A stretch of 64,000 nucleotides of DNA from Promethearchaeota archaeon (GTDB taxonomy: Archaea; Asgardarchaeota; Lokiarchaeia; Sigyniarchaeales; SOKP01), in assembly GCA_048938005.1 (NCBI GenBank), contig JBHLMQ010000003.1:109014-173013 (forward strand), in the 5' to 3' direction. The position numbers were made by a program, and so were the translations under genes. How positions within the stretch are numbered: position 1 is the stretch's first letter; every line of letters begins with the position of its first letter. The notes below the pieces were generated by a model that saw only the letters and a program-made list of their open reading frames with translations, was not told the DNA's origin and made no database searches. This document shows positions 4,370 through 54,610 of the stretch, in pieces.

Positions 4370-4380
4370 TTATTCTTATA

Positions 4381-5118
4381 CTACTGGATGATTGCTTTTA
4401 TTTTCGCGATGTAAGTTCCTAATTTCCTCCCATCTGATTCTGGAACAGCAAGTGCTAAGACTCTATTCTCATCTAAATCATGTATTATAACAGAACCATT
4501 TTCTCCACCTATTATTGAATATTCCATACCACTTTCTAATAAAACTCCAGATAAATTATATAATGCAGCAACCATAGCTGAAAGAATAGGTTCAGGCATA
4601 GTAGATTGAATCTTAATTGGTAATCCATCTTTAGTTATTATTGCTAAAACAAGAGTGTTTGGAATAGCTCGTTTCAGTCCCTTAAATATTTCTTCTTTGA
4701 GTATGTCTGATGTCTCAATAATAGCAGATATTTGTAAACTTAATTTTTGTAATTTATCAATATGAGAATCCAGTCCTTCAAGCTCAGCTAATTCTCTATT
4801 TAAATAAGTTATCATAGATATATTTTCTGTTAAAATTGAAAGGACAATTTTATCTTTCCCAATAATTAAATTATAAGAAACTTCTTGATTTAGTGAATCT
4901 CTTAACATTTTAGATGATAGAAATACAAGACTGCTGTTAGCAGCTGTAACTTCCCCTGTTGTCATTTTAATATCTTTTTTAAATTTATTTGCAACTTTAG
5001 TTCCTTCAGGAGTTCCAATATTAATCCCTAATACAGCTGGGGAGGATTGTAGTTCCCTTTCTATTAATTCAGCAATATCTGATTGTAAAGCTTCGATTAT
5101 TTTATCTTGCTTTTCCAT
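4381..5118 (-). CDS. Tandem roadblock/LC7-domain protein
   Basis: Two ~120-aa repeats of roadblock pattern (IGTPEGTKVA...; IITKDGLPI...LSAMVAAL...IIGGENGSVIIH). Confidence 0.7.
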   Translation of the reverse strand: MEKQDKIIEALQSDIAELIERELQSSPAVLGINIGTPEGTKVANKFKKDIKMTTGEVTAANSSLVFLSSKMLRDSLNQEVSYNLIIGKDKIVLSILTENISMITYLNRELAELEGLDSHIDKLQKLSLQISAIIETSDILKEEIFKGLKRAIPNTLVLAIITKDGLPIKIQSTMPEPILSAMVAALYNLSGVLLESGMEYSIIGGENGSVIIHDLDENRVLALAVPESDGRKLGTYIAKIKAIIQ

Positions 5119-6336: not shown

Positions 6337-6421
6337 ATTGTAATCATTATAGTAAAAATTATTAATAAAAAACATTATTATTAATGATAAAGGGACTCTA
6401 TATATTAAATTTTTATGCGAA

Positions 6422-8845: not shown

Positions 8846-8942
8846 TTATTATACGACCAAGATTTTTTATACCATTGCTTAATTTTAACAATTAAATAAG
8901 AAAGATAAAATTTATGATTACTTTATATTAGCTGATTTTTTC

Positions 8943-36679: not shown

Positions 36680-37426
36680 TCACGTACGAGCGAAAGCACC
36701 GACAGAATCATGTAAGACATTGTCGATTGAAAGGACAAATCCTACTAAAATTCGGCGATCAGTTTCATTATCAAGGATTTTAAGAGCATAAGTGTCTTTA
36801 AAGTCAAACACCCCTCCAAGGAAGAAATCTCTCCACCTATCAGCTTTTTCGATTTCTGCGACAATTTTTCCGGTTGCTACTTCATACACTTTAAAGCTAA
36901 AACCAAAAAAATTACCAATGGCTTCATACCATCGTGTTCCATCAGGCGCTTCTAAGAAAAATTTATTCTTGAAAAATGTAAGTATCTTTTTCTTAATTCT
37001 TGCTATTAAATTCCCTTGTGGATCCTTTAAATCTTGAGCCCCTCGAGCAGATACGATTTTAGCGTGAATAGTAGCAGCTACGGTACCATCAATTTCTTGT
37101 AATTCAACCCTACGTCTAATACTTAAGATTATTCGTTTCATCTTTCCAATAACTTGACCATTCTCATCTAAGATATCACCACTACCCCATTTGGGTTTAG
37201 AAGGGAACCCCTCCTAAACATCCCAGTATTTTTCTTTAAGGATGTAATAATTGCGGTTAATATCAAACAATCCTCCTCCAGGAGTAGGAGTCTTTTTTGA
37301 TGGAATTATTGGAGGTGATACTTCTTCTTGTGTTTTTGCACTCTCAGGTATTGGTGAACCACACTTCTCACAAAAATTCTGGGATGGATCGGTTATCTCA
37401 TCCCCACAATTCGGACAATATGGCAT
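36680..37426 (-). CDS. Zinc-ribbon + LURP-one/scramblase-like protein, split by a 30-nt intron (exons 37426-37220 and 37189-36680; 238 aa spliced)
   Basis: GAGGT SD upstream of ATG 37426; CPNC/CEKC. The spliced junction reads YYILKEKYWD-WGSGDILDENGQVIGKMKR and joins the 70-aa and 153-aa ORF-track pieces. Confidence 0.8.
37190..37219 (-). other. Putative BHB-type mRNA intron (30 nt)
   Basis: TGGG AT^G TTTAGGAGGG-GTT-CCCTTCTAAA CCCA AA^T: 4-bp central helix TGGG/CCCA, 3-nt bulges and a ~10-bp inner stem; contains an in-frame TAG. Confidence 0.82.
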
Positions 37427-37589
37427 ATTTTTACCTCTAATTTTTAATTATTATGTTTTGTTTTGATTAGTGAATGGTGATGTGGTTTTATAAAGTTTCG
37501 GGTAAGTATGCTGATAATTTTATCTTCATGAAAACGTTTTAATTAAATAAGGATTAATTATTATTAATTGAATATTATAGGAAAGCAGT

Positions 37590-38351
37590 ATGTCAACTAT
37601 AATTATACCAAAACTATTGAAATTAAAAGATTACATTACGCTTATAGGGACTACTTTAGGGATTATCGCTCTAGTCTGTGCCTGTTTTGGTACTCGCGAA
37701 TCTATTTCTTTAGGATTTTTTCTGATATCCCTCTCTCTTGGTACTGACATGATTGATGGATATATTGCTCGAAAAACTAAAACTGTGAATGAAATGGGCA
37801 GAGAATTAGATTCATTGAGCGATTCTTTAACATTTGGTATCGCACCAGCAGTACTAACATACCAATCTTTTAAAACTGGGGATTTTTTTGATATTATTAT
37901 TATAATAGGAGCAATTTGTTTTGCTATTGGTGCAATGCTTAGATTAGCGCGATTTAATATTTCAGAAAGTCCAGGATATACAGGTTTACCAACACCATTA
38001 AGTGCCTTATTGTTAATTAACTTTTTCTATGCTAATTATTTTTATGCGTTCGCCATGGGCGGCAATACATATCCTTTTCTGGAGATATCTTCCTATATAA
38101 TACCTATTTTTATGGTTCTTATCGGCTGGTTTAATATCACAACTTACATTCGATTTGGTGAGAAAGGTAAGACAATTTATATTATTTTTTCAGCTTTAGC
38201 CCCATTATGCCCTATACTGGGTATTATTGGAATATTGAATCCAAATTTTCTAATTTCAATTATCGTAGCTATTTTCTTTTTAGGAGCTTTTATATTTATG
38301 TTAATATTAATTGTTAGGGGATTTATTGTTTATCTTATTACCAAGGCATAA
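37590..38351 (+). CDS. pssA: CDP-alcohol phosphatidyltransferase (archaetidylserine synthase-like)
   Basis: DMIDGYIAR...GRELDSLSDSLTFGIAPA, LRLARFN, YTGLPTP. Confidence 0.82.
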   Translation: MSTIIIPKLLKLKDYITLIGTTLGIIALVCACFGTRESISLGFFLISLSLGTDMIDGYIARKTKTVNEMGRELDSLSDSLTFGIAPAVLTYQSFKTGDFFDIIIIIGAICFAIGAMLRLARFNISESPGYTGLPTPLSALLLINFFYANYFYAFAMGGNTYPFLEISSYIIPIFMVLIGWFNITTYIRFGEKGKTIYIIFSALAPLCPILGIIGILNPNFLISIIVAIFFLGAFIFMLILIVRGFIVYLITKA

Positions 38352-38418
38352 ATAATAAATATTTGTCAACAAATAATTTCAGCATCAAATTAACAAAAAA
38401 AAGTTATCCCTACTAAAT

Positions 38419-40407
38419 TTAAAATATTTTCTTTTTCCAACTATCAATATTTTCAATAATTTCTGTTTTATCATGCGCATCTAATAGAGTAGGTTTTTCT
38501 TTATACTTATTTATCGTGCTTCTTAATTTATGTAAAGTTACCGAAAAACCTTTTTTCTCTAGGATTAAATCAGCAATGTCTTGTAGTTCTTTTCCAAACT
38601 CACTTCCCTTAAGATTATCCAACTTATGAATTAAATTAGTGAAAGCAGTATTAATTTGTATAGCTGCTTCATCTCCAGCCTTAGGTTGAGCTGCTGATAA
38701 AAAATCAATTTTATCTTGTAATTTTTGTTTTAAATCTGTAATCTGGGGCTGGGGTGAGGTTGGACTTGGCATATATTTTGTTTGACTTTTAGTAAACCTC
38801 TTATCATCTTTAGGTATTTCTTGAATTTTACTAGGGATGGATATTGTTGGTTTCGCCTTATCGGTTTCAATTTTAATTGGCTTTTTTTCAACCTTTTGAA
38901 ACTGAATTCTTGACGAAATTATAGGTTTAAATGTAGTGAGTGTTTTAGTAGTTGCTGTTATCTTATCAATTTGTGGTTTTGATACCTGAGCAGCATGAAA
39001 AGTGTCTGAATATGCATTTTCCCATATATCTTTTACCAATGGATCGAGTAATGTGATTAATGGATCAAAAGAACTACCAATTCCAATAAAATTATTTAGA
39101 GGGTCCTTTGAATCTTGGATTACTCCCGTATAAATTTGGTTATCACCCTTTAAAATAATTAAATTTTCATTTTCATACATCTTATAAATTAAATTCTTAA
39201 TATTCTTGAAACTTTTAACAATACTATTAGTATGAGCTTCTGAAGATGCTATTTTAATTTTTAAATTATCAGCAATTTTTTCAAATTGTTCAGGAGCTAA
39301 ATGATTTTCAATATGAGGAATTATTAAAGTTAAGTTTTCCTTGGAATTTAAGATAAGATTTTGAATTGCTTCATTAATCTGTGTTACACTGTTTATTATC
39401 CAAATATTACTAAAAATTGATTTATCAATTGAATTTATCTTTTGAATGTAATTTTTCATTAAGATTTCAATAGGTTTATTCAGATTAGAAACTTCATTTA
39501 TGGAATTCTGGATAACAGCATTGATATTTTCTATAATAATGTTTTCAAGATTTTTCATAGCAGCAGAAAGATTATCATTATTATCTTTAATAATTTCATG
39601 AATCGCATTCATTTTAGTTTCGAAATTAGTCAGCATATTCAATAAAAGCATTTTGAAGTCGTTGCGATATTCAAGTATCAAATCTGTGGTTTTATCAATT
39701 GGTTTAGCGGTTTCATCAAATTCTTTTTCAATTAATTCATGTAAGGTGTTGACGAAATCTTTAATCATTTTATCTACTTTCTCTTTAAAAGTTTGTTCAA
39801 TAAGAGATACAATATCTTTCTTTTTTATCTTTTCAAGTAACTCTTTTTTAATTGCATTTAAAGTTTTAATTAAATCAGTAAATTTTGTTTGTGTGATCTT
39901 TTTAATATTTTGGTGAAGATCAGAAAACTTTTTATTAACTTTCTTTAATTCTTCCATGCCCTCAACAATATCTTCTACATCTTGTTTCTGAATAATTGAA
40001 TCCTCTTCAATATCTTTTCTAATCTCTTGAAAAGTATTTAAAATTGAATCTAACTCAATTGCCTTGTTTTCCTGGAAAATTCTATTAACAGAATTAACCA
40101 TTAGTTCATGAATTGAATTTTTAATGTTAGGTAAATTTGCGTTTATATTATCATAATAATTTAAGATCGGAAGAATTGGAGGTAAAGGTGAATAATGTAT
40201 AATAAATTCTTGGTTTTTAGAAATATTCTGAACTAATAAACCAGCATTTATAAGTTCTTTTAGACTTTCATTAAATTCCTCTGGAGTTGCTTTAGGAACA
40301 ATAGTATATAATTCATAATAAGTAAGCGGAAATTTACCTAATGATTTAAGATATATCTCGATAGTGTTTTCTGATAGTTGCATTTTTCTTAAAAAGTTAT
40401 CCATCAA
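38419..40407 (-). CDS. Large protein: N-terminal TrmB-like HTH, long coiled coil, TrmB/PLD-like domain, helical C-terminus
   Basis: LSENTIEIYLKSL...LKELINAGLL...YSPLPP; heptad-rich middle; INEAIQNLILNSKENLTLIIP. Domain names are inference. Confidence 0.6.
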   Translation of the reverse strand: MMDNFLRKMQLSENTIEIYLKSLGKFPLTYYELYTIVPKATPEEFNESLKELINAGLLVQNISKNQEFIIHYSPLPPILPILNYYDNINANLPNIKNSIHELMVNSVNRIFQENKAIELDSILNTFQEIRKDIEEDSIIQKQDVEDIVEGMEELKKVNKKFSDLHQNIKKITQTKFTDLIKTLNAIKKELLEKIKKKDIVSLIEQTFKEKVDKMIKDFVNTLHELIEKEFDETAKPIDKTTDLILEYRNDFKMLLLNMLTNFETKMNAIHEIIKDNNDNLSAAMKNLENIIIENINAVIQNSINEVSNLNKPIEILMKNYIQKINSIDKSIFSNIWIINSVTQINEAIQNLILNSKENLTLIIPHIENHLAPEQFEKIADNLKIKIASSEAHTNSIVKSFKNIKNLIYKMYENENLIILKGDNQIYTGVIQDSKDPLNNFIGIGSSFDPLITLLDPLVKDIWENAYSDTFHAAQVSKPQIDKITATTKTLTTFKPIISSRIQFQKVEKKPIKIETDKAKPTISIPSKIQEIPKDDKRFTKSQTKYMPSPTSPQPQITDLKQKLQDKIDFLSAAQPKAGDEAAIQINTAFTNLIHKLDNLKGSEFGKELQDIADLILEKKGFSVTLHKLRSTINKYKEKPTLLDAHDKTEIIENIDSWKKKIF

Positions 40408-40581
40408 ATCTTCACCAACTTATTTCACATATTTTTGACTATTTTATATAAAGCCATATGAATTTTTATTTATAATTATTTTATCTATCTTTTCTAAAAA
40501 ATATTTAAGATGGTATTATCATTATGATTATTAATACTATTTGAGATAATTACAGAAGTTGATCACACAGGTGCGGGAAAA

Positions 40582-41925
40582 ATGATAGAGGACATATATT
40601 TTTACTTGGACTTAACAAAAGATTTACTGAAAAAAAAAGAAATAGTAAAAGCTATTAAATATTATATTGAGGAAAAAAACAAAATAAATGTAAATAGCCA
40701 CTTTTCTCTTCTGATTTTCCAAGAAGAAGGGAACCCTATCTTTATTATGGATAAAAAGGATTCTGGTATAATTACTAAATCTATTGAAGAAAACTGGAAA
40801 AGTCGCCCAAAAGAACAAAGCTTTTTTGAAAATGGATTATTCTATATTTTTTCTTATATAGCCGAGACAGTAAGAAAAAAATCTAAATTTAATAGAATTC
40901 TTGTTATTACAGATACCCCTTCAGATTTATCTGAGGATTATCAAGAAGCCTTATTTAATTTAGTGTCAAAAATAAAAAATTTTCCAACATTTATCGATAT
41001 CATAAGAGTATCTGAAAAAGATAAACGATTCTTTAGCGATGATGTAAAATTGAATATGCTATCATCTGATACTAAGGGAGGCATTTTCTATGTTCAAGAT
41101 AGAAAAGAATTCTTTGAAGTTATTAAGAAATTAATTAAAACCAAACAATTTGTCTCTACTTTTGTCGATCGACCAGATCGAATTAGAATTACTAAAGAAG
41201 ATTATGCTTTTTATAATCACTTAGCAAAATCATTAAAAAAAGCAGAAAATGTGGAAGGATTAGTTTGTTATTTTTGCAAAGAAGAAGTTTGTCCAGTGTG
41301 TACAGATATTTATGATATCCCTTTAGTTTGCGAGGATTGTAATTCCAGCTTCCATAATTGCTGTGTTACTAATTATGTTATAAATCATAATATAGGTATA
41401 CCTAATATCTTTCGTTGTCCTAATAATGAATGCGATGTGCTTTTAAAAATAGATGAAGATGAAATTATTGAAGTAAGTGGAGAAGTAGAAATAAGTTCTG
41501 TAAAAAAATACTTGGAAGAGGATATACTAGAGAAAATTACTAAAAAATTTCCTAAAGTGAAACCATTACCACCATTAGCTTCTACGATAAAAAAGGAAAA
41601 AATCAAGAAAGGAGAATCATTAGCAATTACAAACAACATTCCTGTAGAAGAAAAAACAGTTAAAACTGTTAGAATTGGAGGATTTTTTGGAAAATTATAT
41701 ACTGTAAAGAAAGTTGGTGACAAAATTGTGTACGAAAAAACTACCCAGACTGCTTTTAAGCCAAGCCCTACAAATCAAAATGGAAAAATTTTAACAACAA
41801 AAAAAATAATATCGTCTAATAATGAAAAAGAAAAGAAGAAGGCTAGCTTTTTTATATGTCCTCACTGCGGAACGCAGATGAATTCACAACAATTCAGATG
41901 TCCTAATTGTGGACATAAAATATAA
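40582..41925 (+). CDS. vWA-like domain + Cys/His-rich (RING/PHD-like) finger + C-terminal zinc ribbon; paralog 1
   Basis: EDIYFYLDL, RILVITD, FIDIIRV, TKGGIFY; CYFC, CPVC, CEDC..SFHNCC, RCPNNEC; CPHC, CPNC. Confidence 0.7.
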   Translation: MIEDIYFYLDLTKDLLKKKEIVKAIKYYIEEKNKINVNSHFSLLIFQEEGNPIFIMDKKDSGIITKSIEENWKSRPKEQSFFENGLFYIFSYIAETVRKKSKFNRILVITDTPSDLSEDYQEALFNLVSKIKNFPTFIDIIRVSEKDKRFFSDDVKLNMLSSDTKGGIFYVQDRKEFFEVIKKLIKTKQFVSTFVDRPDRIRITKEDYAFYNHLAKSLKKAENVEGLVCYFCKEEVCPVCTDIYDIPLVCEDCNSSFHNCCVTNYVINHNIGIPNIFRCPNNECDVLLKIDEDEIIEVSGEVEISSVKKYLEEDILEKITKKFPKVKPLPPLASTIKKEKIKKGESLAITNNIPVEEKTVKTVRIGGFFGKLYTVKKVGDKIVYEKTTQTAFKPSPTNQNGKILTTKKIISSNNEKEKKKASFFICPHCGTQMNSQQFRCPNCGHKI

Positions 41926-42089
41926 GAACAAGAAAGAAACTGAGTTCCATTATACTTTTATTATATAGTCTTTTAATAAAAACAAATTAAAAGAGAATTA
42001 TATTAAAGAAAAAATAATCGAATTTTGTATTATCAGTAAAAATAAATAGTACTTCTGTTATTATTTTTTTAATTAGGATTGATGTTAAA

Positions 42090-43346
42090 ATGTTACCCAC
42101 CCTATCTGAAGAATTCATATTTTATATTGATTTAGTTAGTAACTTTCTAAAAAAGAGACCTTTAACGAAAGCTATTAGTGCTTTTATTAGAGAAAAAGAT
42201 AAATTTAATGCGCTAACATCTTATGGGGTAGTAATATTCCAAAAAAATGAAAATCCTGTTAACATTTATGATTTAAAAGATTCGGACTCAGTTTTGAATA
42301 CTATCAATGATGCATGGGAAACTCGAGAAAATGAGAATAGTTATTTAGAAAATGGATTATACGAGATTCTAGCATATATTTTTAGAAAAAGCCGAAAAGC
42401 AAGAAAGCAGTATCGTGTAATAATATTTTCAGATACGCCAAGTAAATTGTCTGAGGATTATTACAATGCGCTTTATGATTTGCTAATTAAAGCTAAAAAA
42501 TTCTCAGCCTTTATTGATATTATCCGTATTGGAGATGAGAAATTTTATGAAGACGATGTGAAACTCAAAGTTATTGCAAGTGAAACTCATGGAGGTACAT
42601 TCTATTGCCCAAATGAAAAACTTCTCCAAAATATATTAGGGTCATTAATTCAAAATAAAAAAGAATTCAAGATTATAAAAGCTGATGAGATTGACCAAAT
42701 TTTCTATGAAGATAAAGTATTTTATGAACGTTTAGCAGTAGATCTCATCAGTCTCTCTCCAGAAGATCAAGAAATATGTGATATATGTGAACAAGAGCTA
42801 TGTCCTATTTGTGAAGCACATTCTGATGAAGTACATAAATGTTTTAATTGTGGTACTAAATTTCATAATTGTTGTGCTGCAAAATATTCCCTCGCAAAAA
42901 ATATTGGTTTTAGACACATATTTAGGTGCATACAGTGTGAAACTTTGTTAAAATTGGATGAGGAATTTGTTGATTTGATATATGAAGAAGAATTAGAAGA
43001 AGAATTACCTCAGATGGAATTACAAGAACCTATAGCAGAAGATATTGTAGAAGAAATAGAAGAGGCAAGTATAGAGGAAAAAGTAATTTCACCACCTAAT
43101 GAAGTCAAAAAAGTGAGACTTGGAGGATTCTTTGGGAAAGATATTACAATAGAAACAAAGAATATAAAAAAACCTACAATTAAAGAAATTTCAGAGCCAA
43201 CTGATTCACTAGAAAAACCCCTTTCTATAACTTCATTGAAACCACCAAGAAAAAAAGGTACTATATCAATAAAAGTCTGTAAAATATGTGGTGCAACTAT
43301 TCAAAATACTCAAAATTGTCCAACATGTGGAGCTAAAATAGATTAG
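42090..43346 (+). CDS. vWA-like domain + Cys/His-rich finger + C-terminal zinc ribbon; paralog 2
   Basis: Shares ENGL..I..YI, DTPS.LSEDY, FIDIIR, DDVKL, FHNCC, IFRC, VR.GGFFGK with the upstream gene. Confidence 0.7.
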   Translation: MLPTLSEEFIFYIDLVSNFLKKRPLTKAISAFIREKDKFNALTSYGVVIFQKNENPVNIYDLKDSDSVLNTINDAWETRENENSYLENGLYEILAYIFRKSRKARKQYRVIIFSDTPSKLSEDYYNALYDLLIKAKKFSAFIDIIRIGDEKFYEDDVKLKVIASETHGGTFYCPNEKLLQNILGSLIQNKKEFKIIKADEIDQIFYEDKVFYERLAVDLISLSPEDQEICDICEQELCPICEAHSDEVHKCFNCGTKFHNCCAAKYSLAKNIGFRHIFRCIQCETLLKLDEEFVDLIYEEELEEELPQMELQEPIAEDIVEEIEEASIEEKVISPPNEVKKVRLGGFFGKDITIETKNIKKPTIKEISEPTDSLEKPLSITSLKPPRKKGTISIKVCKICGATIQNTQNCPTCGAKID

Positions 43347-43359
43347 TTTCTTTAAAACT

Positions 43360-43908
43360 TTAAATTTTTAAATTTTCAACAAGAACTACTCCTGAAATAT
43401 TAGTTTCTTTTAACGCATTAAATTGTTTCCCCATTCTTTTAGCATATTCCTTTAGTAATCGTAGAATTTGATTAATTTTTTGTTTAGGAAATTCTAACAA
43501 GCTTAATTTAAATGTTCTATCAGAATTTTGTTGAACAAAATGAAGTTCATATATATGAAATGGTTTGTAATTAAATTTTCTTAATTTTATCTCTAACTTT
43601 TTGAATTCCGACCAGTAAATTAGAAATAATGGGGTTTTAGGTATTAATATCTCAATTTTTTCATTACATATTAAAAATTTTCTAATACCAGGATTTCTAG
43701 TTAAAATGTAAGAATAATACAAACCGAATATAAATACTATAATCAAGCTTGCACCGACACCGATTAAAGTTCCAGGAAATAAAAACATTAAATATATATT
43801 TAATGATGATAAAAGACCTATAAAAAGCAAACAGATTGAACAAGGTATTGAAATTTTATTGAATTTTTCCCCAGAAAAATCAACTATTTCAACTTTATCT
43901 GATTTCAT
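43360..43908 (-). CDS. Two-TM membrane protein with soluble C-terminal domain
   Basis: Two hydrophobic helices followed by a beta-rich region. Confidence 0.6.
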   Translation of the reverse strand: MKSDKVEIVDFSGEKFNKISIPCSICLLFIGLLSSLNIYLMFLFPGTLIGVGASLIIVFIFGLYYSYILTRNPGIRKFLICNEKIEILIPKTPLFLIYWSEFKKLEIKLRKFNYKPFHIYELHFVQQNSDRTFKLSLLEFPKQKINQILRLLKEYAKRMGKQFNALKETNISGVVLVENLKI

Positions 43909-44046
43909 TTACTTAAACTTAGATTAATCAATTTTACATTTAAATTTTAATAAAAATTTTTTTGAGATTTTAATTATTGTAGAATAAAGTAGTTTTAAAA
44001 ATCTAAATATAAAATTAAAAGTAAACAAAAAATTTTGATGATTTAA

Positions 44047-45387
44047 ATGTTTCTTAAAGAGGAATTAGAAGAATTTCGTAAAAATAGACCTAAATCGAGA
44101 GAAATTTGGCAAAAAGCACTTAAAGTTTTACCCGGCGGTATTTCTCATAATATCCGAACATTTGGTTTACCTTTACTAGGTGCTTTTCCAGTTTTTATTA
44201 ATTCAGCTAGTGGTCCATATCTTACAGATATTGATAACAACAAATATATTGATTGTTGGAATGGTCATTTTGCAATGATTCTAGGTCATAATCCTCCTGA
44301 AGTTCAGAAAGTTATCAAAAAATATTTAGCATATGGATGGCATTTTGGTACAAATACCGAATATCAAGTTGAATTAGCAGAACGTATTATAAAAGATAAT
44401 TCAGGGATTGAAAAAATTAGATTTTGTACAAGTGGAACAGAAGCTACTATGTATGCTATAAGATTAGCTCGAGCATTTACAAATAGAAAACTTGTAGCCA
44501 AAGCAGGACTTGGATGGCATGGAGCAAACGACACGCTTTCTTATGCTGTAGGGACATTGAATGGTACAATTTCTTCCCCTGGTCTCCCGACCCCAGAAGA
44601 AGCAGGAATTTTAACTTTTGAGATTAATAATGAAAGTACTTTCAATTTAATAAAAGATAATTATAAAAATTTAGCTGCAATAATTTTAGAACCTGTCTTA
44701 GGAGGTGGCGGTGGATTTCCAGTTGATATAGAATTTTTAAAAAGGTTAAGAGAAGAAACTGAGCAACATGATATACTACTTATTTTTGATGAAGTGATTA
44801 CGGGTTATCGCTTCAACAACTGTTTATTTCAGAATGATATTAAAATAACACCAGATTTAACTACAATGGGCAAAATTATCGGAGGGGGTATGCCTATAGG
44901 AGCAATCGGAGGAAGAAAAGAAATTATTGAGCAATCTAGTCCTGAAATCGAGAATCAAGTTTTAATTGGAGGAGGAACTTTTTCAGGATATCCACTTAGT
45001 ATGATTGCAGGATTAAAAACCTTAAATTTATTGAGAAATTCCCAACAGGATTATTATCGCATAAATCAGGAGGGTAATAAACTGCTTAATAGTCTCAACC
45101 AATTTTTTAGTGAAGAGAAATTACCAATTATTGCTAAGGGATTTAAATCTATAATTATGCTTCATGCACTTTTAAAATGGATTGAAAATCCTTCAATGCG
45201 GAAAATAATTGAATTCAAAGATAAAAAACGAGAAGCTCTAATCCAATTATCACTCTTTAATAGGAATGTGTCAGGTTTACACGGCTTAGGTTCAATTTCA
45301 ATGGCTCATACTCATGAAAACATTGTTAAAATAGAAGAGGTTGTTAAGGAAATAGGACCTCCAGTTGCTCAATCAAACTTTAATTAA
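44047..45387 (+). CDS. Class III PLP aminotransferase (glutamate-1-semialdehyde aminomutase-like)
   Basis: LPGGISHNIR, RFCTSGTEATM, IFDEVITGYR, PDLTTMGKIIGGGMPIGA, GTFSG. Confidence 0.85.
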   Translation: MFLKEELEEFRKNRPKSREIWQKALKVLPGGISHNIRTFGLPLLGAFPVFINSASGPYLTDIDNNKYIDCWNGHFAMILGHNPPEVQKVIKKYLAYGWHFGTNTEYQVELAERIIKDNSGIEKIRFCTSGTEATMYAIRLARAFTNRKLVAKAGLGWHGANDTLSYAVGTLNGTISSPGLPTPEEAGILTFEINNESTFNLIKDNYKNLAAIILEPVLGGGGGFPVDIEFLKRLREETEQHDILLIFDEVITGYRFNNCLFQNDIKITPDLTTMGKIIGGGMPIGAIGGRKEIIEQSSPEIENQVLIGGGTFSGYPLSMIAGLKTLNLLRNSQQDYYRINQEGNKLLNSLNQFFSEEKLPIIAKGFKSIIMLHALLKWIENPSMRKIIEFKDKKREALIQLSLFNRNVSGLHGLGSISMAHTHENIVKIEEVVKEIGPPVAQSNFN

Positions 45388-45463
45388 AATTACCATGTAA
45401 ATTTTAATCAATTAATTATCTAAAATTTAGTTTGAACTGAAATAATAAAGAGAAGTAATAAAT

Positions 45464-46492
45464 ATGAGTAAGAAATATACTGTTATTCAAGTAGGATTAG
45501 GTCCGATGGGGAAAATAATAACACATCTCCTTCTTGAACGTAAAAATTTATCACTAAAGGGAGTAATTGATATTGATCCTCAGCTTATAGGTAAAAAATT
45601 AAGCGAGATTCTTAATTTTGAGGATGAGATAGGTTTAGTTATTGAATCTAATTTAAAAACAGTGATTTCTAAAGAAAAAGTTGATGTTGTTATTATTGCT
45701 ACCTCCTCTGCTTTAGAAGAAATTACTCCAATAATTAAAGAAGCAATAAATTCAGGAAGTAATGTAATTTCCATATGTGAGGAATTATCTTACCCTTTCC
45801 AATATTTTCCTAAGCTTTCCGAAGAACTTCATCAACTAGCAGAATCTCACAATGTTACTGTAGTTGGAACAGGAATTAATCCTGGATATCTTATGGATCT
45901 ATTACCTATTGTTATTACAGCACCGTGCCAATCCTTAGAAGCAATTAAAGTTACAAGGATGATGAACTCAGCAAAAAGAAGAGAATCGTTTCAACGTAAG
46001 ATCGGAACAGGCTTATCATCAGAAGAATTTCGTCAGAAGATTCAGAAAAAAGAAATTACAGGGCATGTAGGATTAACTCAATCCATTCAAATGATAGTAG
46101 CAGCTTTAGGAATTGAATATGATGAAATTATGGAAATTCCTCCTAAAGAAATAATTGCTGAAAAAGAATTCACAACAACTTATGGTGAAAATATCCCGAA
46201 AGGATACGTTTGTGGCTTACAAAGTAAAGCTATTGCCAAGAAAAAAGGTAAGGTGATAATTCTATTAGATTTTGTAGCTTATGCTGGCGAACATGATGAA
46301 TTTGATAGTATAATAATCGAGGGTAATCCTAATATCCATCAAAAAATTATTGGAGGCGTTCATGGTGATTTGGGTACCGCTGCAATGGTTGTTAATTTAA
46401 TTCCTAATGTAATAGGTGCTGAATCTGGACTTTTAACTATGAAAGATCTATCTGTACCTTGCTACACTGCAAATATATGGAAAAATGAGTAA
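45464..46492 (+). CDS. 2,4-diaminopentanoate dehydrogenase-like NAD(P) oxidoreductase
   Basis: GLGPMG, NVISICEEL, GTGINPGYLMD, KIGTG, GHVGL, GGVHGD. Confidence 0.75.
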   Translation: MSKKYTVIQVGLGPMGKIITHLLLERKNLSLKGVIDIDPQLIGKKLSEILNFEDEIGLVIESNLKTVISKEKVDVVIIATSSALEEITPIIKEAINSGSNVISICEELSYPFQYFPKLSEELHQLAESHNVTVVGTGINPGYLMDLLPIVITAPCQSLEAIKVTRMMNSAKRRESFQRKIGTGLSSEEFRQKIQKKEITGHVGLTQSIQMIVAALGIEYDEIMEIPPKEIIAEKEFTTTYGENIPKGYVCGLQSKAIAKKKGKVIILLDFVAYAGEHDEFDSIIIEGNPNIHQKIIGGVHGDLGTAAMVVNLIPNVIGAESGLLTMKDLSVPCYTANIWKNE

Positions 46493-46518
46493 TAAAAAAA
46501 TATAAGAGAGTCTTCTTT

Positions 46519-47487
46519 TTAAGTCGCTATTACTGCATTAATCGGAAAGTATAGTATGATTGATAGAATTGCTGCCATTGGAAATGTTAAAAACCAGATT
46601 AGAACTATTTTCCACATACCTTTCTTAGTAGGAGTATGACTCGCTTTAGATAATCCCACAAGAGACGCCACTAGCATATGAGATCCAGATAAAGGAATTC
46701 CTAGGGCCGTACCAACGAATAATATCGCAGCTGTAGGAATTTGGGCGGCAAAAGCGGTACTTGGATACAGCTCAGTGATTCTTCCAACACTTTTAATAAC
46801 TCCTCGACCTAAAACTATTAATCCTCCTGCTAAACTTAAACCAGTTATTAAAAGAAGAAGATTTATTTGGAATTCTCCAACTCCAACAACTATTCCTACC
46901 GCATTCGAACAATCATTTCCTGATCTCGAGAACGCAGTGATACAAATAATTATTAGAACTATATAAGTGAAGATTTTCTCAGTTTTTTCTAAGCTCTGAA
47001 ATCCATTTAAGTGTTTAACTTTATATAGATGCATAAGCTTAAAAACAATAAATGAGACAACATAGCCAATAATCGGAGATAAAATCCACCAAATGCCCAA
47101 TTCAAGAATTTTAAACCAATCAAGACTAGCATTAAGAGCTATCCCAAGACCTATAACAGCACCGATTGTTGCGTGAGTAGTTGATATTGGTAATCCTAAG
47201 GAAGATGATAATATCAACCAGATAGCAGATGATATTAAAATAGTTATTACAATTGCATTAGTAAGATACAATGGTGGAAATATGCCTTTGCCTACCGTTT
47301 TACTTACAGCTTCCCCCAATATAAGGGCTCCTGTTATTGCGAAAATTGTAGCTAAGATTAAAATGTATTTCATATTTAGAATTCTCGAACCATAGACTCC
47401 AGCAAAAGTCTCGTCATTCGCACCTATTCCAAATGCGATAATAATTGCTATAACTAAAAATATCGTCAAAATAATTGGAAATGCCAT
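46519..47487 (-). CDS. PiT-family inorganic phosphate transporter
   Basis: GIGAND, LPISTTHA, SGNDCSNAVG, GIPLSGSH. Confidence 0.88.
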   Translation of the reverse strand: MAFPIILTIFLVIAIIIAFGIGANDETFAGVYGSRILNMKYILILATIFAITGALILGEAVSKTVGKGIFPPLYLTNAIVITILISSAIWLILSSSLGLPISTTHATIGAVIGLGIALNASLDWFKILELGIWWILSPIIGYVVSFIVFKLMHLYKVKHLNGFQSLEKTEKIFTYIVLIIICITAFSRSGNDCSNAVGIVVGVGEFQINLLLLITGLSLAGGLIVLGRGVIKSVGRITELYPSTAFAAQIPTAAILFVGTALGIPLSGSHMLVASLVGLSKASHTPTKKGMWKIVLIWFLTFPMAAILSIILYFPINAVIAT

Positions 47488-47502
47488 TTCAATCGCCTTT
47501 AA

Positions 47503-48165
47503 TTATTTACTTGGATATTTCACAATTAAGCTTCTTAGAAAATCGCTAATCTCTTCAGCCCTTACAATCATATCAAATATTTTTATGCATATTTTAGATG
47601 TTAGATATACTCGAAGTGACTTTTCTTCTGGTTTTTTATAAATCACTTCTAGGACTTTATATTTTGCTTCACGAGCACTTCGTTTTAGCTTTTCGATATA
47701 AAAACTTTTTTGGTAAGCAGTTTTAAAATCTGTTTCCATAAGATTTACCATATCCACTAAAGTATCAATAGTTTCTTGATACAAGTCGTTTATTGTTTTC
47801 ATCTCTGTTTTAATGTCATCAAACAGTTTAAAGGGATAAACTTTCAGACCCATTGCTAGTTCCTCTGAACTATCTGAAACAATATCTAAATATTTAATTA
47901 ACCTATAACGATCTTCGACTAGAAAAGGGAGAGCCCGTTGATCTCTATAAAGTAAATCAATATATTTTTCTTTAGCACGATCTGCTTTATGTTCACATTG
48001 CATCACTTCATCTAATTTTTTCTTATCTAACTTTCCATTTACCAGATCATTAATACAATCATGTAGTAATAATGAACCGTTTAAAACTTCACTATTAAAT
48101 TCGCTTGCTGCATTTAATAATTGATTTCTTTTATCACTTTTTAATTTCAATTTCATTAGTCTCAC
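47503..48165 (-). CDS. DUF47 (PhoU-like) phosphate transport regulator
   Basis: EHKAD, LPFLVEDR, AEEISD; directly upstream of the PiT gene. Confidence 0.82.
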   Translation of the reverse strand: MRLMKLKLKSDKRNQLLNAASEFNSEVLNGSLLLHDCINDLVNGKLDKKKLDEVMQCEHKADRAKEKYIDLLYRDQRALPFLVEDRYRLIKYLDIVSDSSEELAMGLKVYPFKLFDDIKTEMKTINDLYQETIDTLVDMVNLMETDFKTAYQKSFYIEKLKRSAREAKYKVLEVIYKKPEEKSLRVYLTSKICIKIFDMIVRAEEISDFLRSLIVKYPSK

Positions 48166-48330
48166 ATCAAGAATGTTTTAATTATTTAACTAATAGGACC
48201 TAATAGTCACACATATCATTTATTTCTTAAAAAAAATTTCTATTTTTGTTTTAGTAATAAAGAAATTCAAATTCAAAAAAATATTATAATTAATTAAAAT
48301 AATAATATTTCAAATGCAGTAAAACTTTTC

Positions 48331-48891
48331 TTGCCGTTTCTAGAAATAAGTTTAAATGATTTAGCTTTTGACCCAAAAGTACAGACATATTGTGTAAAAC
48401 CTAATTTTAGATGTCCTAGTTATGGTCATTCATGGGCTTGTCCACCAGAGGCTCCATATTTGGAACATGAAGTATCAAAATATAAACAATTTTATCTTAT
48501 TTTTGTTAAATACAATTTAAGAAGTTATATAGAGAAAGAAAAAGAAAAACATCCAAAAAGAAACGAAAATAGCATAAGAAATGCTTTTTTTATGAAAAAC
48601 CTATTACGAGATAAGTTAGAACAAGAAATTGAATCATTTATTAATGAAAATCAAAACCTCTATGACGAAAAACTTATTTTATGGGATGGATTTTGTAGAT
48701 TATGTTTTAATGAAAAAGATAAGGGATGTACTTATGATGCTGGTGATCCTTGTCGCTATCCAGATAAAAAGAGGTATTCTATGGAAGCAGTAGGAATTGA
48801 TGTAACTCAAACTGTAAAAAATTTAAATTTTAATTTAGAATGGCCTCCTAATAAATATGTTTATCGTTTTGGTCTAGCATGCTTTAAATAA
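48331..48891 (+). CDS. DUF2284-family metal-binding protein
   Basis: CPSYGHSWACPP, CRLC, CRYP...SMEAVGIDV. Confidence 0.8.
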   Translation: MPFLEISLNDLAFDPKVQTYCVKPNFRCPSYGHSWACPPEAPYLEHEVSKYKQFYLIFVKYNLRSYIEKEKEKHPKRNENSIRNAFFMKNLLRDKLEQEIESFINENQNLYDEKLILWDGFCRLCFNEKDKGCTYDAGDPCRYPDKKRYSMEAVGIDVTQTVKNLNFNLEWPPNKYVYRFGLACFK

Positions 48892-48909
48892 ATAGTAAAA
48901 GTAAGGAGA

Positions 48910-50242
<1,333 letters not shown>

Positions 50243-50429
50243 ATCTCATATTACTTTTGATAGTTTTGTATAATCTAATTCATAATTTAATCCAAAAAAG
50301 ATTATTCTATACAGTTTAAAAAATTTTTGGTAGATAAGACTGTAAAAAATAGATATATAAATATAGATTTTCTTGTAAGTCATAATCTATTTTTAATATT
50401 TCTTACTAAAAGCCTTCATCGTTGTTGAT

Positions 50430-51347
50430 ATGCTTAAAAAAAATGTTGTAATTGATTTAACTCATAATGAAATGTTAAATATTGATGATGAAGAATTCAA
50501 GGAATTCCTTGGCCTCCTTAAGAGATTGGATCTAAAGATAAAAAAGAATGAGGATGAACATATAACAAAAGAAGCTTTAGAGAATATTGATCTTTTAATC
50601 ATTGGTAATCCTATTGATGATTTCTTTTCAAGCTTAGAAATCAAACATATTGTTGATCATGTAAGAAGTGGAGGTGGCTTATTATTATTGAGTGAATATG
50701 GGGCCGATTATCTTCAAAAAACTAATTTAAATGATATTGCTGGAAGATTTGGTATATTTTTCGAGAAAAACATAATAAAAGAGATTAATAGTGCCAATCA
50801 AAACTGTACAAGCATTTTACACATTCAGGATTTTTTAAAGCATGAGATAACAAAAAATATAAGAGAAATCATAATTGGTGGAGCTTGTTCCTTACTTCTA
50901 AATAAAGAAGTAAGACCATTATTACAAACGAATGATCATTCTATTTGGTCGGAAGTTTATAATAATACATCCGAGAAATGGACAAAAGAAGACGAGAAAC
51001 AACAAATTGTTGCAGCATATACAGAATTTGGCCAAGGGAAAGTCGTAGCTATTGGAGATATCGACATTTTTACTACGAATTCAAGAATAGGCATAAATTC
51101 ATTGGATAATCGAAAATTTATACAAAATCTTATTAATTGGTTAATAGAACCTGTTCGGGAATCTAAAGTCATGGAATTTATCCTTAGTCAATTAGGTGAA
51201 CTACAATATGAAATAAGAGAAACTAATAAGGTACTTAATAACATTATAGAAACAATGACAATTTTAGAAAAAAGAATCAGTTATTTAGAAGAGAAGTCTA
51301 AAGTATCTGCCCAACCAGCAGATACAGAAAATAGTTTTGAAAATTAG
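50430..51347 (+). CDS. DUF4350/GldG/IFT52 (GIFT)-like domain protein with C-terminal coiled coil
   Basis: IDLTHNE, DLLIIGNP...F...E...I..HVRSGGGLLLL, GQGKVVAIGD..IF, DN..FIQNLINWL. Confidence 0.7.
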   Translation: MLKKNVVIDLTHNEMLNIDDEEFKEFLGLLKRLDLKIKKNEDEHITKEALENIDLLIIGNPIDDFFSSLEIKHIVDHVRSGGGLLLLSEYGADYLQKTNLNDIAGRFGIFFEKNIIKEINSANQNCTSILHIQDFLKHEITKNIREIIIGGACSLLLNKEVRPLLQTNDHSIWSEVYNNTSEKWTKEDEKQQIVAAYTEFGQGKVVAIGDIDIFTTNSRIGINSLDNRKFIQNLINWLIEPVRESKVMEFILSQLGELQYEIRETNKVLNNIIETMTILEKRISYLEEKSKVSAQPADTENSFEN

Positions 51348-51489
51348 TTTTTTAATGTGATCTATTCTAAAATATTCGAGAAAAATCTAAAGAACTTTTT
51401 TTTATTATAATTAAGTATTAAAAATTTTGAAGTTTATAAACATTAAATCATATTATCATCAATTAAATTATTTCAAAAGAGGTAATAAA

Positions 51490-52935
51490 ATGCCTTTAAA
51501 AACACCAGAACAATACCTTGAATCTATCAAAAGACCTGTAAATTTGTATATGTTTGGAGAGAAAGTAAAAGAATTTTGGAACCACCCTATTATAAGACCT
51601 TCAATTAATACTGTAATGAAGATTTATGAATTAGCTCAAATGGAGGAGTATAAAGAGATTATGACTGCAAAATCTCATTTAACAGGTGAATTAATTAATA
51701 GATTCACCCATATTCATCAATCCGTAGATGATTTAATTAAAAAAGTAAAAATGCAGAGATTACTTGGACAAAAAACTGCCTGTTGTTTTCAAAGATGTGT
51801 AGGTTTTGACACTGCAAACGCTTTATACAGTGTAACATATGAAATGGATAAAAAAAACAATACTAATTATCATGAACGTTTTAAGAAATATTGGATCGAC
51901 GTTCAAACCCAAGATCTAATGGTAGATGGCGCAATGACGGATACTAAGGGAGACAGAAGTAAAAGACCTAAAGATCAACCTGATCCAGATGCATATCTGC
52001 ATATAATTGACGAAAGTGACGATGGTATTATAGTTCGAGGTGCTAAAGTTCATCAAACAGGATTTCTTAACTCTCATAAGGCAATTGTTATGCCCACTCT
52101 CACATTAAGACCAGGTGAAGAGGAATATGCAATTAGTTTTGGAATTGAGACAAATGCGGCTGGAATAACCCTAATATATGGAAGACAATCATGTGATACA
52201 AGAAAATTGGAAAACGAGAAACTGGATATTGGAAATTTTAAGTATGGTGGTCAAGAAATTTTTGTTGTTTTCGACAATGTCTTTATTCCTAATGAGAATA
52301 TTTTTATGAAGGGTGAAATCGAATTCTCTCGAGAATTGGTTAATCGTTTTGCTGGATTTCATCGGCAATCTTATGGAGGATGCAAAGTGGGGGTTGGAGA
52401 TGTACTTATAGGAGCTACAGCTCTGATTTCTGAATATAACGGTACTCAAAACGCATCTCATGTTAAAGATAAACTTGTTGAAATGACACATTTAAATGAG
52501 ACTTTATATAGCTGTGGTATAGCTTGCAGCTCATTAGGTTTTCAAAGAGAAGCAGGCAATTATGAAATGGATATGTTACTAGCTAATGTATGTAAACAAA
52601 ATGTCACTCGGTTTCCTTACGAAATAGGAAGATTGGCTGAAGATTTGGCAGGAGGGATGATTTGTACTATGCCCTCTGAAGCTGATATTAAATCAAAAGA
52701 GATAGGATCGCTAATTGAAAAATATTTAACTACATGTGAGGGAGTCTGCGCTGAGGATCGCTTTAAAGTATTACGTTTTATTGAGAATTTAACAATGGGG
52801 GTTGCATCTGTTAGCTATCGAACCGAATCCATGCATGGGGCAGGCTCACCTGCTACTCAAAGAATTATGATAGCAAGACAAGCAAATCTGGAAGAAAAGA
52901 AAAAACTAGTAAAAGAGATTCTGGATATTGAATAA
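51490..52935 (+). CDS. abfD: 4-hydroxybutyryl-CoA dehydratase (AbfD/HpaB family)
   Basis: TACCFQRCVG, GAMTDTKGDRS, VRGAKVHQTG, HRQSYGGCK, ESMHGAGSP; GAGGT SD before ATG 51490. Confidence 0.82.
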   Translation: MPLKTPEQYLESIKRPVNLYMFGEKVKEFWNHPIIRPSINTVMKIYELAQMEEYKEIMTAKSHLTGELINRFTHIHQSVDDLIKKVKMQRLLGQKTACCFQRCVGFDTANALYSVTYEMDKKNNTNYHERFKKYWIDVQTQDLMVDGAMTDTKGDRSKRPKDQPDPDAYLHIIDESDDGIIVRGAKVHQTGFLNSHKAIVMPTLTLRPGEEEYAISFGIETNAAGITLIYGRQSCDTRKLENEKLDIGNFKYGGQEIFVVFDNVFIPNENIFMKGEIEFSRELVNRFAGFHRQSYGGCKVGVGDVLIGATALISEYNGTQNASHVKDKLVEMTHLNETLYSCGIACSSLGFQREAGNYEMDMLLANVCKQNVTRFPYEIGRLAEDLAGGMICTMPSEADIKSKEIGSLIEKYLTTCEGVCAEDRFKVLRFIENLTMGVASVSYRTESMHGAGSPATQRIMIARQANLEEKKKLVKEILDIE

Positions 52936-52970
52936 TTGTTTTAGGGAATATAAAAAAAAAAAGAAGATAT

Positions 52971-54200
52971 TTATTTATCTTTCTTAATTTCGACTTTAAT
53001 TAAATTATAAACTCTTGTTCCTAGTCCAATTTCCTCAGCTGCTTTTAATTGCAGCTGCCAATGTTTTGATTCTTTTCCATCTGGATTCATATCCATCTCA
53101 CCTGATTCAGGATCAAAACGAGGGGTATGAGAAAACCATTCAAAAGGTCCTTTTGATGGAATATTTTTAACCTCAGAGAGAATTGAATGTGGATTGATTG
53201 AAGATTTATGTATGAGATCTACAGTTGCTTGATCTAATGCAACAGGATCTAAAGAAGCTAAAATCCCTATATCTGGAACAAACGGAACGTCTGAACCTCC
53301 TGTACAATCACATTGATATGTGATATCTATAGCATAATTAAGATAAAAGATTTTATCTTTTCCAAAATAGTCAACTACTCCTTTGGCATTATCTACAAAT
53401 CCATTAATAAAATCCTCTCTTGTAGATGATCCTGCTCCAATCACCCCTTTATCACATATAGATCTACACATATAGCAATAACGGCACTTATCCCAATCCT
53501 TTTTAAGAACTTTATTAACTGTTTTACTTAAAGCACCAGTTGGACAAACTTTTATACATTTATCACAATCTTCAACACATTTATCTAAATCATAATCAAA
53601 TTTTGTGCCCAGATGAGCTCGGATTTTTTGGCCTTTTGCCACAGAACCAATACCTAAGTTTTTCAAAGCACCTCCAAAGCCAGCTCCAGCGTGTCCTTTA
53701 AAATGGGATGCTAATATTATATAATCAAATTCTCTTAAACGTCCAGCAACAAGAATTTCATCAAATCTCTTTCCATCAATTTTTTGAACGTTATAATCAA
53801 TACCATAAGGCCCATCCAACATAATAATAGGCGTACCCATTGTTTCTCCCGTAAAACCATGTAATAATGCAACTTTTAAATATTCTTCTTCATTTGCCCT
53901 TCCAGAATATTCAGTATGAATTCCTGAAATGTTCTCAGGCAATCCCCAACCACAAGATTCTGCTACTGAAGGAACTCCTCCTATATCTTTAACGTAATCG
54001 CATAAAAATCGTATATAACTTGGACGGAGATATCTTGTATTTTCTAAAGCTCCAAAATGTGTTTTAATTACTACTTTTTCCCCACTTTTAATTCTCTGCT
54101 TAATTCCAAGCTTCTCTAGAGCTAAAGGACCCTTAAACTTGCTCATACTCTGTTCATGAGAGTGAGTTCGAGCTGTAAAATAAAATACATCTGACGTCAT
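52971..54200 (-). CDS. DUF362-family Fe-S protein
   Basis: IKTHFG, SHFKGH..AGFGGALKNLGIG, inserted ferredoxin, CDC, DIGILASLDPVALDQA. Confidence 0.85.
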   Translation of the reverse strand: MTSDVFYFTARTHSHEQSMSKFKGPLALEKLGIKQRIKSGEKVVIKTHFGALENTRYLRPSYIRFLCDYVKDIGGVPSVAESCGWGLPENISGIHTEYSGRANEEEYLKVALLHGFTGETMGTPIIMLDGPYGIDYNVQKIDGKRFDEILVAGRLREFDYIILASHFKGHAGAGFGGALKNLGIGSVAKGQKIRAHLGTKFDYDLDKCVEDCDKCIKVCPTGALSKTVNKVLKKDWDKCRYCYMCRSICDKGVIGAGSSTREDFINGFVDNAKGVVDYFGKDKIFYLNYAIDITYQCDCTGGSDVPFVPDIGILASLDPVALDQATVDLIHKSSINPHSILSEVKNIPSKGPFEWFSHTPRFDPESGEMDMNPDGKESKHWQLQLKAAEEIGLGTRVYNLIKVEIKKDK

Positions 54201-54350
54201 TTCCCTTAAATGTTAAAAAGTCCTATTTAATTCGTACAAATATTAAGAGTTTTAAAGTTAACTCAAAAAATATTTTAAAACTAATTAATTCTATTAATAT
54301 AATATATCAACACAATAATGACTCTGAATAAAAAATAGGATGGTATTATA

Positions 54351-54610
54351 ATGGCTCGCTGCCCAGAAAGTGTCTGGCTCGATGCCTAAACCTGAAATGC
54401 GGAGGCTTTATGAAATACCATTCAGCCATAAAACAAGTTGTTTGTCAATCTTGTGGACTTTCGCTTACAAGACATGAACTGGATGGATATTGGAAAAAGG
54501 TAAGGAGTGAAAATATTACAGAGGTAGATGATTTGCAAAAAAAGAAAAATCGACGAAAGGAATGGCTTGAATGGTATAGTAAATCTAAATCCGAGAAAGA
54601 AAGTTATTAA
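54351..54610 (+). CDS. Small zinc-ribbon protein, split by a 29-nt intron (exons 54351-54368 and 54398-54610; 76 aa spliced)
   Basis: Spliced MARCPE-CGGFMKYHSAIKQVVCQSCGLSLT restores the first CxxC of the ribbon; SD-like AGGATGGT lies upstream. Confidence 0.8.
54369..54397 (+). other. Putative relaxed BHB-type mRNA intron (29 nt)
   Basis: CTGC CCAG AA^A GTGTCTGGC-TCGAT-GCCTAAAC CTGA AA^T GCGG: central helix has 3 of 4 pairs, 4-bp exon stem; the unspliced frame hits TAA. Confidence 0.75.

Follow-up and report, generated by a model that had tools for sequence, protein, structure and literature searches.

The DNA analysed here is a stretch of 64,000 nucleotides (nt) from a Promethearchaeota archaeon (assembly GCA_048938005.1, contig JBHLMQ010000003.1, positions 109,014 to 173,013 of the forward strand), referred to below as the window. 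Three unrelated protein-coding genes in it are each interrupted by a short insert (Table 1), namely a gene joining a zinc ribbon to a LURP-one-related domain (the LURP-like gene), the adenylosuccinate synthetase gene purA, and a gene for a small zinc-ribbon protein. By comparison of related genomes, these putative introns belong to a uniform class of 28–32 nt that occurs in no fewer than five of this genome's protein genes and is polymorphic within one Promethearchaeota genus. The inserts are very likely bulge-helix-bulge (BHB) introns, spliced by the tRNA splicing endonuclease EndA and the ligase RtcB.

Interrupted Genes in the Window

An earlier note, made from the window alone, had described insertions at these three places, and their coordinates proved to be correct, with lengths of 30, 31 and 29 nt. 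Each holds an in-frame stop codon, as had been claimed, and the unspliced frames end after 70, 14 and 12 residues, respectively. Cutting after the second nucleotide of each predicted bulge restores the frame in all three cases; joining the flanks in this way by script (start codons at 37426, 50242 and 54351) gives open frames of 238, 433 and 76 amino acids (aa) that lack internal stops. All three genes are split or truncated in mechanical open reading frame (ORF) lists, in keeping with the note's warning about gene calls in this region, and its assignment of the host to the Asgard archaea agrees with the labels carried by the relatives' records. Public records matching purA are mostly labelled Promethearchaeota, a few bear other Asgard labels and one is evidently a mislabelled bacterial record.

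Table 1. Interrupted genes and predicted introns of the genome (positions are those of the window unless a contig is named).
Feature	Location	Strand	Size and phase	Remarks
LURP-like gene, exon 1 (zinc ribbon)	37220..37426	-	69 codons	Pfam Zn_Ribbon_1, E 5.1e-08
LURP-like gene, intron 1	37190..37219	-	30 nt, phase 0	10-bp hairpin; in-frame TAG is the second codon of the insert
LURP-like gene, exon 2 (LURP-one-related domain)	36680..37189	-	169 codons + stop	Pfam LOR PF04525, E 4.9e-10
purA, exon 1	50203..50242	-	13 codons + 1 base	
purA, intron 2	50172..50202	-	31 nt, phase 1	adenylosuccinate synthetase; after codon 13 + one base
purA, exon 2	48910..50171	-		Pfam Adenylsucc_synt, E 8.8e-153, profile positions 10-416 of 416
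Zinc-ribbon gene, exon 1	54351..54368	+	6 codons (18 nt)	
Zinc-ribbon gene, intron 3	54369..54397	+	29 nt, phase 0	after codon 6 of 76-aa protein
Zinc-ribbon gene, exon 2	54398..54610	+	70 codons + stop	
NifU-like gene, insert	contig C29		30 nt	motif-free census; fits relaxed BHB pattern; stop right after 5′ junction
Uncharacterised gene, insert	contig C37 10505-10535	+	30 nt, phase 2	splits Asn codon; fits relaxed BHB pattern; stop right after 5′ junction

Uninterrupted Relatives

Each downstream exon was searched in 24 genomes of the same genus and 16 of the same order, and the DNA upstream of each match was read; all genomes compared are draft metagenome assemblies, and the present one is scored as 7% contaminated. 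Uninterrupted orthologs matching the spliced product, which the earlier note had expected among relatives, were found for all three genes in loci of both the same genus and other genera. The purA insert sits at an identical site in 10 of 22 same-genus loci and is absent from the other 12 as well as from all eight other-genus loci, in which the phosphate-binding loop motif SWGDEGKGK reads continuously. Intron 2 interrupts the Asp codon of this loop, a codon that is whole in every intron-less relative. Beyond the panel, the insert is present in 20 of 51 evaluable named public genome loci and absent from 31 (3 more could not be read), although these named records are partly the same genomes as those of the same-genus panel, and it is also present in 9 of 47 evaluable metagenome contig loci. 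The metagenome contigs at purA all span several genes of genomic DNA, with an identity to the query of no more than 92%, and none resembles a spliced transcript. Insert length among the carriers is 30, 31 or 32 nt.

The LURP-like gene has a 30-nt insert at the site seen in the window in 6 of 23 same-genus loci and an insert of 28–30 nt at a point 12 nt upstream of it in 3 others, and is contiguous to the base in the remaining 14 and in 7/7 other-genus loci, where the junction is crossed in one reading frame. Directly past the 5′ junction of intron 1, the stop of this genome is TAG, whereas other carriers have TGA or TAA, and this variation in stop identity excludes reassignment or read-through of one stop codon. 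In the small zinc-ribbon gene, whose product matches no Pfam or NCBIfam family, intron 3 falls within the first CPxCG knuckle, between its two Cys; inserts of 28, 29 or 31 nt are found in 12 of 23 same-genus loci, and the gene is contiguous (MARCPECGG) in the other 11 and in seven of seven other-genus loci.

First exons are still under protein-level constraint in the carriers. The purA exon 1 peptide, for example, is conserved among them, and two carriers encode the same Leu-Ser by entirely different codons. Since insert length varies regardless of codon phase while the exons are conserved in register, the insert cannot be a translated or frameshifted segment, and it can be inferred from these comparisons that the inserts are removed at the RNA level.

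Structure and Predicted Splice Geometry

The central helix, formed between four exon bases and four intron bases, has all four pairs in introns 1 and 2 of this genome (one being a G-U pair in purA), in 18 of 20 purA carriers and in 6/6 carriers of the LURP-like insert, and across species it is 97.5–100% paired in these two genes. Both 3-nt bulges start with A in 38 of 38 carriers, extending what the earlier note had correctly observed for the six bulges of the window, and a hairpin more stable than its shuffled copies intervenes in every carrier. In purA, 8 of 18 pairs have changed on both sides, a number that none of 500 shuffles reached, and 80% of cells are paired compared with 36–51% when the partners are slid. 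For the LURP-like insert, 98.7% of the structure cells are paired against 12–67% with slid partners, and 5 of 13 pairs are compensatory; this set consists of six related sequences, so that shuffle figures overstate the signal and more trust can be placed in the comparison with slid partners.

In each of the five introns of this genome, the junctions set by the intron-less relatives directly follow the second base of the two bulges. The same register, of four exon bases, two bulge bases and then the cut, is found at zero shift in the genome's tRNA introns in Ser-UGA, Arg-CCU and Met-CAU, the ends of which were placed by ARAGORN on the tRNA fold (its other intron calls were too imprecise and were not used). 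A relaxed version of the motif fits 0.4% of the combinations of position and length in this genome, yet it fits all five known junctions, two of which were found without recourse to the motif.

Splicing Enzymes and Proposed Pathway

This genome encodes two proteins with a tRNA_int_endo domain, from genes on contigs C26 and C56, and one RtcB. The EndA type, which the earlier note had proposed as a check, is by sequence a two-subunit alpha/beta pair. One of the two EndA proteins aligns end to end and ungapped with catalytic chains of two-subunit (heterotetramer) EndA structures (3p1z_B, E 1.8e-35). The alignment thereby crosses a loop that in Crenarchaeota is tied to the acceptance of relaxed substrates. 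The second EndA lacks the His at the catalytic position in an alignment to 1a79_A, as would be expected of a structural subunit. Asgard archaea have been described as possessing an (alpha-beta)2 EndA with that loop insert (PMC5829648).

In the proposed pathway, the four exon bases ahead of the first 3-nt bulge would pair in the pre-mRNA with the four intron bases ahead of the second 3-nt bulge, while the remainder of the intron folds as a hairpin. The EndA alpha/beta pair would then cleave between the second and third bases of each bulge, after which ligation of the exons by RtcB would bring the two parts of the gene back into one frame. Splicing as such, its enzyme and a regulatory role, if there is one, are deduced here from DNA comparison.

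Weighing the Alternatives

Several observations count against splicing by EndA and RtcB. The exon-side outer helix of the canonical hBHBh′ structure is weak in purA (69% of cells paired) and cannot be recognised in the LURP-like or zinc-ribbon gene; as this exon–exon helix is not conserved, the inserts would be relaxed substrates. Minimum-free-energy folding of the local sequence fails to recover the 3-nt bulges exactly. The layout of 4-nt helix strands, 3-nt bulges and hairpin that the earlier note had seen in the window is common to all three insertions, except that the central helix of the third is relaxed, with three of four pairs in 12/12 carriers. A whole-genome scan for split genes with the BHB motif, also suggested by the note, found frame-restoring hits to be no more numerous than hits in frame-shifted controls. 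A loose BHB pattern combined with an ORF-fusion test had 7490 hits compared with 7556 and 7605 in the controls, and frame-restoring hits never rose above controls on refinement (GC-rich helix, A-first bulges, longer stems, 28–32 nt, codon-usage scores, no nearby start codon, hairpin energy). By itself, the BHB motif predicts introns poorly, and introns of this kind are rare.

The weak outer helix and the mismatched central helix of intron 3 also favour an alternative in which the inserts are removed from RNA by another nuclease and ligase, or by self-cleavage. This is improbable, because all five junctions share with the tRNA introns of this genome a geometry of cuts at the second base of two 3-nt bulges flanking a 4-nt helix, and because the catalytic EndA aligns through the loop linked to relaxed substrates. 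Group I and group II introns can be rejected, as a ribozyme core takes hundreds of bases, inserts of 28–32 nt are too short for one, and Rfam at gathering scores gives no match anywhere in the window; no tRNA is predicted there by ARAGORN. Less probable still is a reading in which the inserts are hairpins tolerated in the DNA of genes that are broken, truncated or begin again downstream, a view favoured by the metagenomic origin of the genomes and by the mechanical ORF lists, in which every second exon has a possible downstream start. However, purA has a single match in this genome, and its second exon lacks the first nine positions of the Adenylsucc_synt profile and the first half of the phosphate-binding loop. 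First exons are conserved as protein in the carriers, some with different codons for the same residues, the structure is kept by compensatory changes across many species, and records of many independent projects have an insert at that very site.

Programmed translational bypassing, in which ribosomes hop over the inserts, is known from phage T4 gene 60 and from the ‘byp’ elements of yeast mitochondria. Such elements resemble the present case in their number, in being short hairpins inserted into coding genes and in having a stop where the insert begins, and here, too, a stop codon lies directly past the supposed take-off point of a short hairpin; in intron 1 there is even a Trp codon both before and after the insert. 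Bypass elements differ in being kept in the mRNA and in having matching take-off and landing codons, whereas the codon ahead of the insert differs from the last triplet of the insert in purA and the zinc-ribbon gene. Moreover, the Asp codon of purA (phase 1) and the Asn codon of the contig C37 gene (phase 2) are split by the inserts and intact in all intron-less relatives. A hop cannot rebuild these residues, which rules out ribosome hopping there, nor does bypassing have any need for an exon–intron helix with two 3-nt bulges, and the explanation as a whole is hardly credible. Draft metagenome assemblies throughout, and the contamination noted above, are the grounds for suspecting an assembly or binning artefact. 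That suspicion merits almost no credence, since diverged inserts lie at the same sites in 10, 6 and 12 same-genus genomes (purA, LURP-like and zinc-ribbon gene, respectively) and the purA insert recurs in the public genome and metagenome loci counted above.

Frequency in the Genome

As motif scans could not part signal from noise, the census of introns relied on motif-free alignments. Comparison of the window with syntenic DNA of five relatives gave 157 alignments and 30 indel blocks, among which the coding-flanked inserts with stops were introns 1 and 2 only; intron 3, with a first exon of 18 nt, was not recovered. Three other inserts specific to the window were rejected as introns, none of them interrupting a coding sequence: one of 22 nt at 4363-4384, where a stop codon is surrounded by a repeat and the protein is the same with or without it, and inserts of 45 nt at 6377-6421 and 31 nt at 8848-8878, both upstream of a start codon. 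In-frame indels of 21–60 nt without stops, in this and the following same-genus comparison, were read as ordinary length variation.

A comparison with 890 kb of one same-genus genome (G022; 351 and 383 aligned segments) revealed two new 30-nt inserts in the present genome, those of the NifU-like gene and of the uncharacterised gene on contig C37. Conversely, a metal-dependent hydrolase gene of G022 (NCBIfam PRK00685-like) has a 30-nt insert with a 9-bp perfect hairpin (L169:5809-5928, minus strand), and its counterpart here (contig C34 20437-21100) is intron-less. Against 400 kb of a genome from another family, 152 orthologue-like queries recovered intron 1 and no new intron. In an N-terminal exon test against the same genome, purA was the only convincing case among 65 N-termini, with 14 other candidates weak or in-frame, and the score of the small zinc-ribbon gene was too low to pass the cut-off; these censuses underestimate the number of short first exons.

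The earlier note's central proposal, that tRNA-type inserts occur in Asgard protein genes, is thus supported by genome comparison, but its suggestion that three per 64 kb might be representative is not, given that the 890 kb and 400 kb comparisons yielded only two further introns of this genome outside the window. The rate there appears to be roughly ten times lower, and a rough estimate would place the total at about ten to a few tens of introns per genome.

Relation to Known Systems

A close precedent is found in the crenarchaeal cbf5 pre-mRNA, which contains a BHB intron (Watanabe, 2002, cited in PMC7714728 and PMC5829648; Yokobori, 2009, PMC2738675), and PMC7714728 reports that, besides its own case in a 5′ untranslated region, only this crenarchaeal mRNA intron had been described, which matches the earlier note's remark that archaeal mRNA introns are known mainly from cbf5. 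The cbf5 intron is likewise a tRNA-type intron at a BHB motif in a protein gene, is linked to heterotetrameric EndA and has been gained and lost among relatives. However, it concerns one gene in one phylum, whereas the putative introns described here occupy at least five genes of an Asgard archaeon at a uniform 28–32 nt, with more genes and sites in its relatives. The cbf5 (TruB-family) gene of this genome is uninterrupted, with both TruB_N matches in one 342-aa open frame without an internal stop.

In Haloferax volcanii, the HVO_1309 mRNA carries a BHB element in its 5′ untranslated region that is an EndA substrate in vivo and in vitro (PMC7714728). It shares with the present case an mRNA as substrate of EndA, cleavage being predicted here, but there the element lies in an untranslated leader and the coding sequence is uninterrupted, whereas here the coding sequence itself is interrupted. 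Introns of Asgard tRNA genes are the subject of two reports (PMC11291895; bioRxiv 10.64898/2026.10.13.758758). The present inserts share the cut geometry of the tRNA introns in this genome, and gains, putative here, recur at neighbouring sites in both; in the passages covered, the papers treat tRNA genes only, whereas the hosts here encode proteins and removal must restore a frame, and the intron-rich classes that they name are other Asgard classes. In the openly searchable literature, with subscription journals and supplements outside its scope and a prior description therefore possible, no report of BHB introns in Asgard protein genes was found.

HAC1/XBP1 splicing also removes a short structure-defined intron by means of a protein endonuclease with sealing by RtcB, and removal changes the frame. 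These features are shared with the present inserts, for which the endonuclease and RtcB are predicted, but HAC1/XBP1 splicing uses a different endonuclease and a different stem-loop motif and is stress-regulated, and nothing here shows regulation. The system (IRE1 and RtcB) is named in PMC13149111, which does not mention archaeal mRNA introns in the passages covered.

Several unrelated mRNAs of an Asgard lineage appear to be processed by tRNA-splicing enzymes. Among the archaea closest to eukaryotes, this would be a natural system for studying how protein genes acquire and lose introns when no spliceosome is present. In this genus, these genes, purA included, will come out truncated or split from standard gene calling, distorting metabolic reconstructions, and the uniform size and species-level polymorphism of the inserts make the idea of splicing directly testable.

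Possible Intron Turnover Within the Genus

Three genes, the LURP-like gene, the NifU-like gene and the contig C37 gene, have inserts at two sites in different species. In the NifU-like gene, the site of this genome is occupied in two genomes and a second site in a third (L209, G003), ∼108 nt downstream in a conserved Cys-x-x-Cys region and with four of four central pairs; those three are the only ones with internal stops among 21 same-genus matches. In the contig C37 gene, four genomes have the insert at the site of this genome and two have it 9 nt upstream, and these six are again the only ones with internal stops (24 same-genus matches). The intron at the C37 site (L190/L239) has the same palindromic 4-mer and A-rich bulge at the 5′ junction and at its own 3′ end, and a similar repeated flank accompanies the intron 9 nt upstream in relatives L230 and L241. 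The repeated flank looks like a duplicated target site.

Sister genomes differ in intron state at several genes. A quick maximum-likelihood tree of the five proteins (34 rows, 916 columns) requires a minimum of seven changes of intron state for purA, eight for the zinc-ribbon gene, five and three for the two LURP-like sites and four for the contig C37 gene; this tree is small, derives from the very genes under study and is unable to distinguish gain from loss. Tentatively, BHB mini-introns of ∼30 nt may be turning over in this genus through gains at new, often neighbouring, sites and precise losses, so that sister species come to differ; this is put forward as a possibility rather than as the expected outcome, and recombination between species may also account for the distribution. 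Reverse splicing, or a return of spliced RNA to the genome as a copy, might play a part in such turnover. If true, mRNA introns would be actively gained and lost in close prokaryotic relatives of eukaryotes, on the basis of tRNA-splicing enzymes and with no spliceosome.

A further 30-nt BHB-like insert of G022 (L173:9623-9742, minus strand) is absent from the present genome (contig C76 near 6065; L189 about 994-1143). The locus is GC-rich, lies between two genes and contains only a 49-aa ORF; on contig C76 it has no Rfam match at gathering scores, and it may be an unrecognised RNA gene. ARAGORN detects only 16 tRNA genes in the 3.7 Mb genome, 12 of them with an intron call, and most tRNA genes here are probably interrupted at positions that the program cannot model. 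At three tRNA-like loci, inserts of 25–31 nt are present in G022 and absent here (contigs C85, C97 and C41), indicating that tRNA introns are polymorphic within the genus too.

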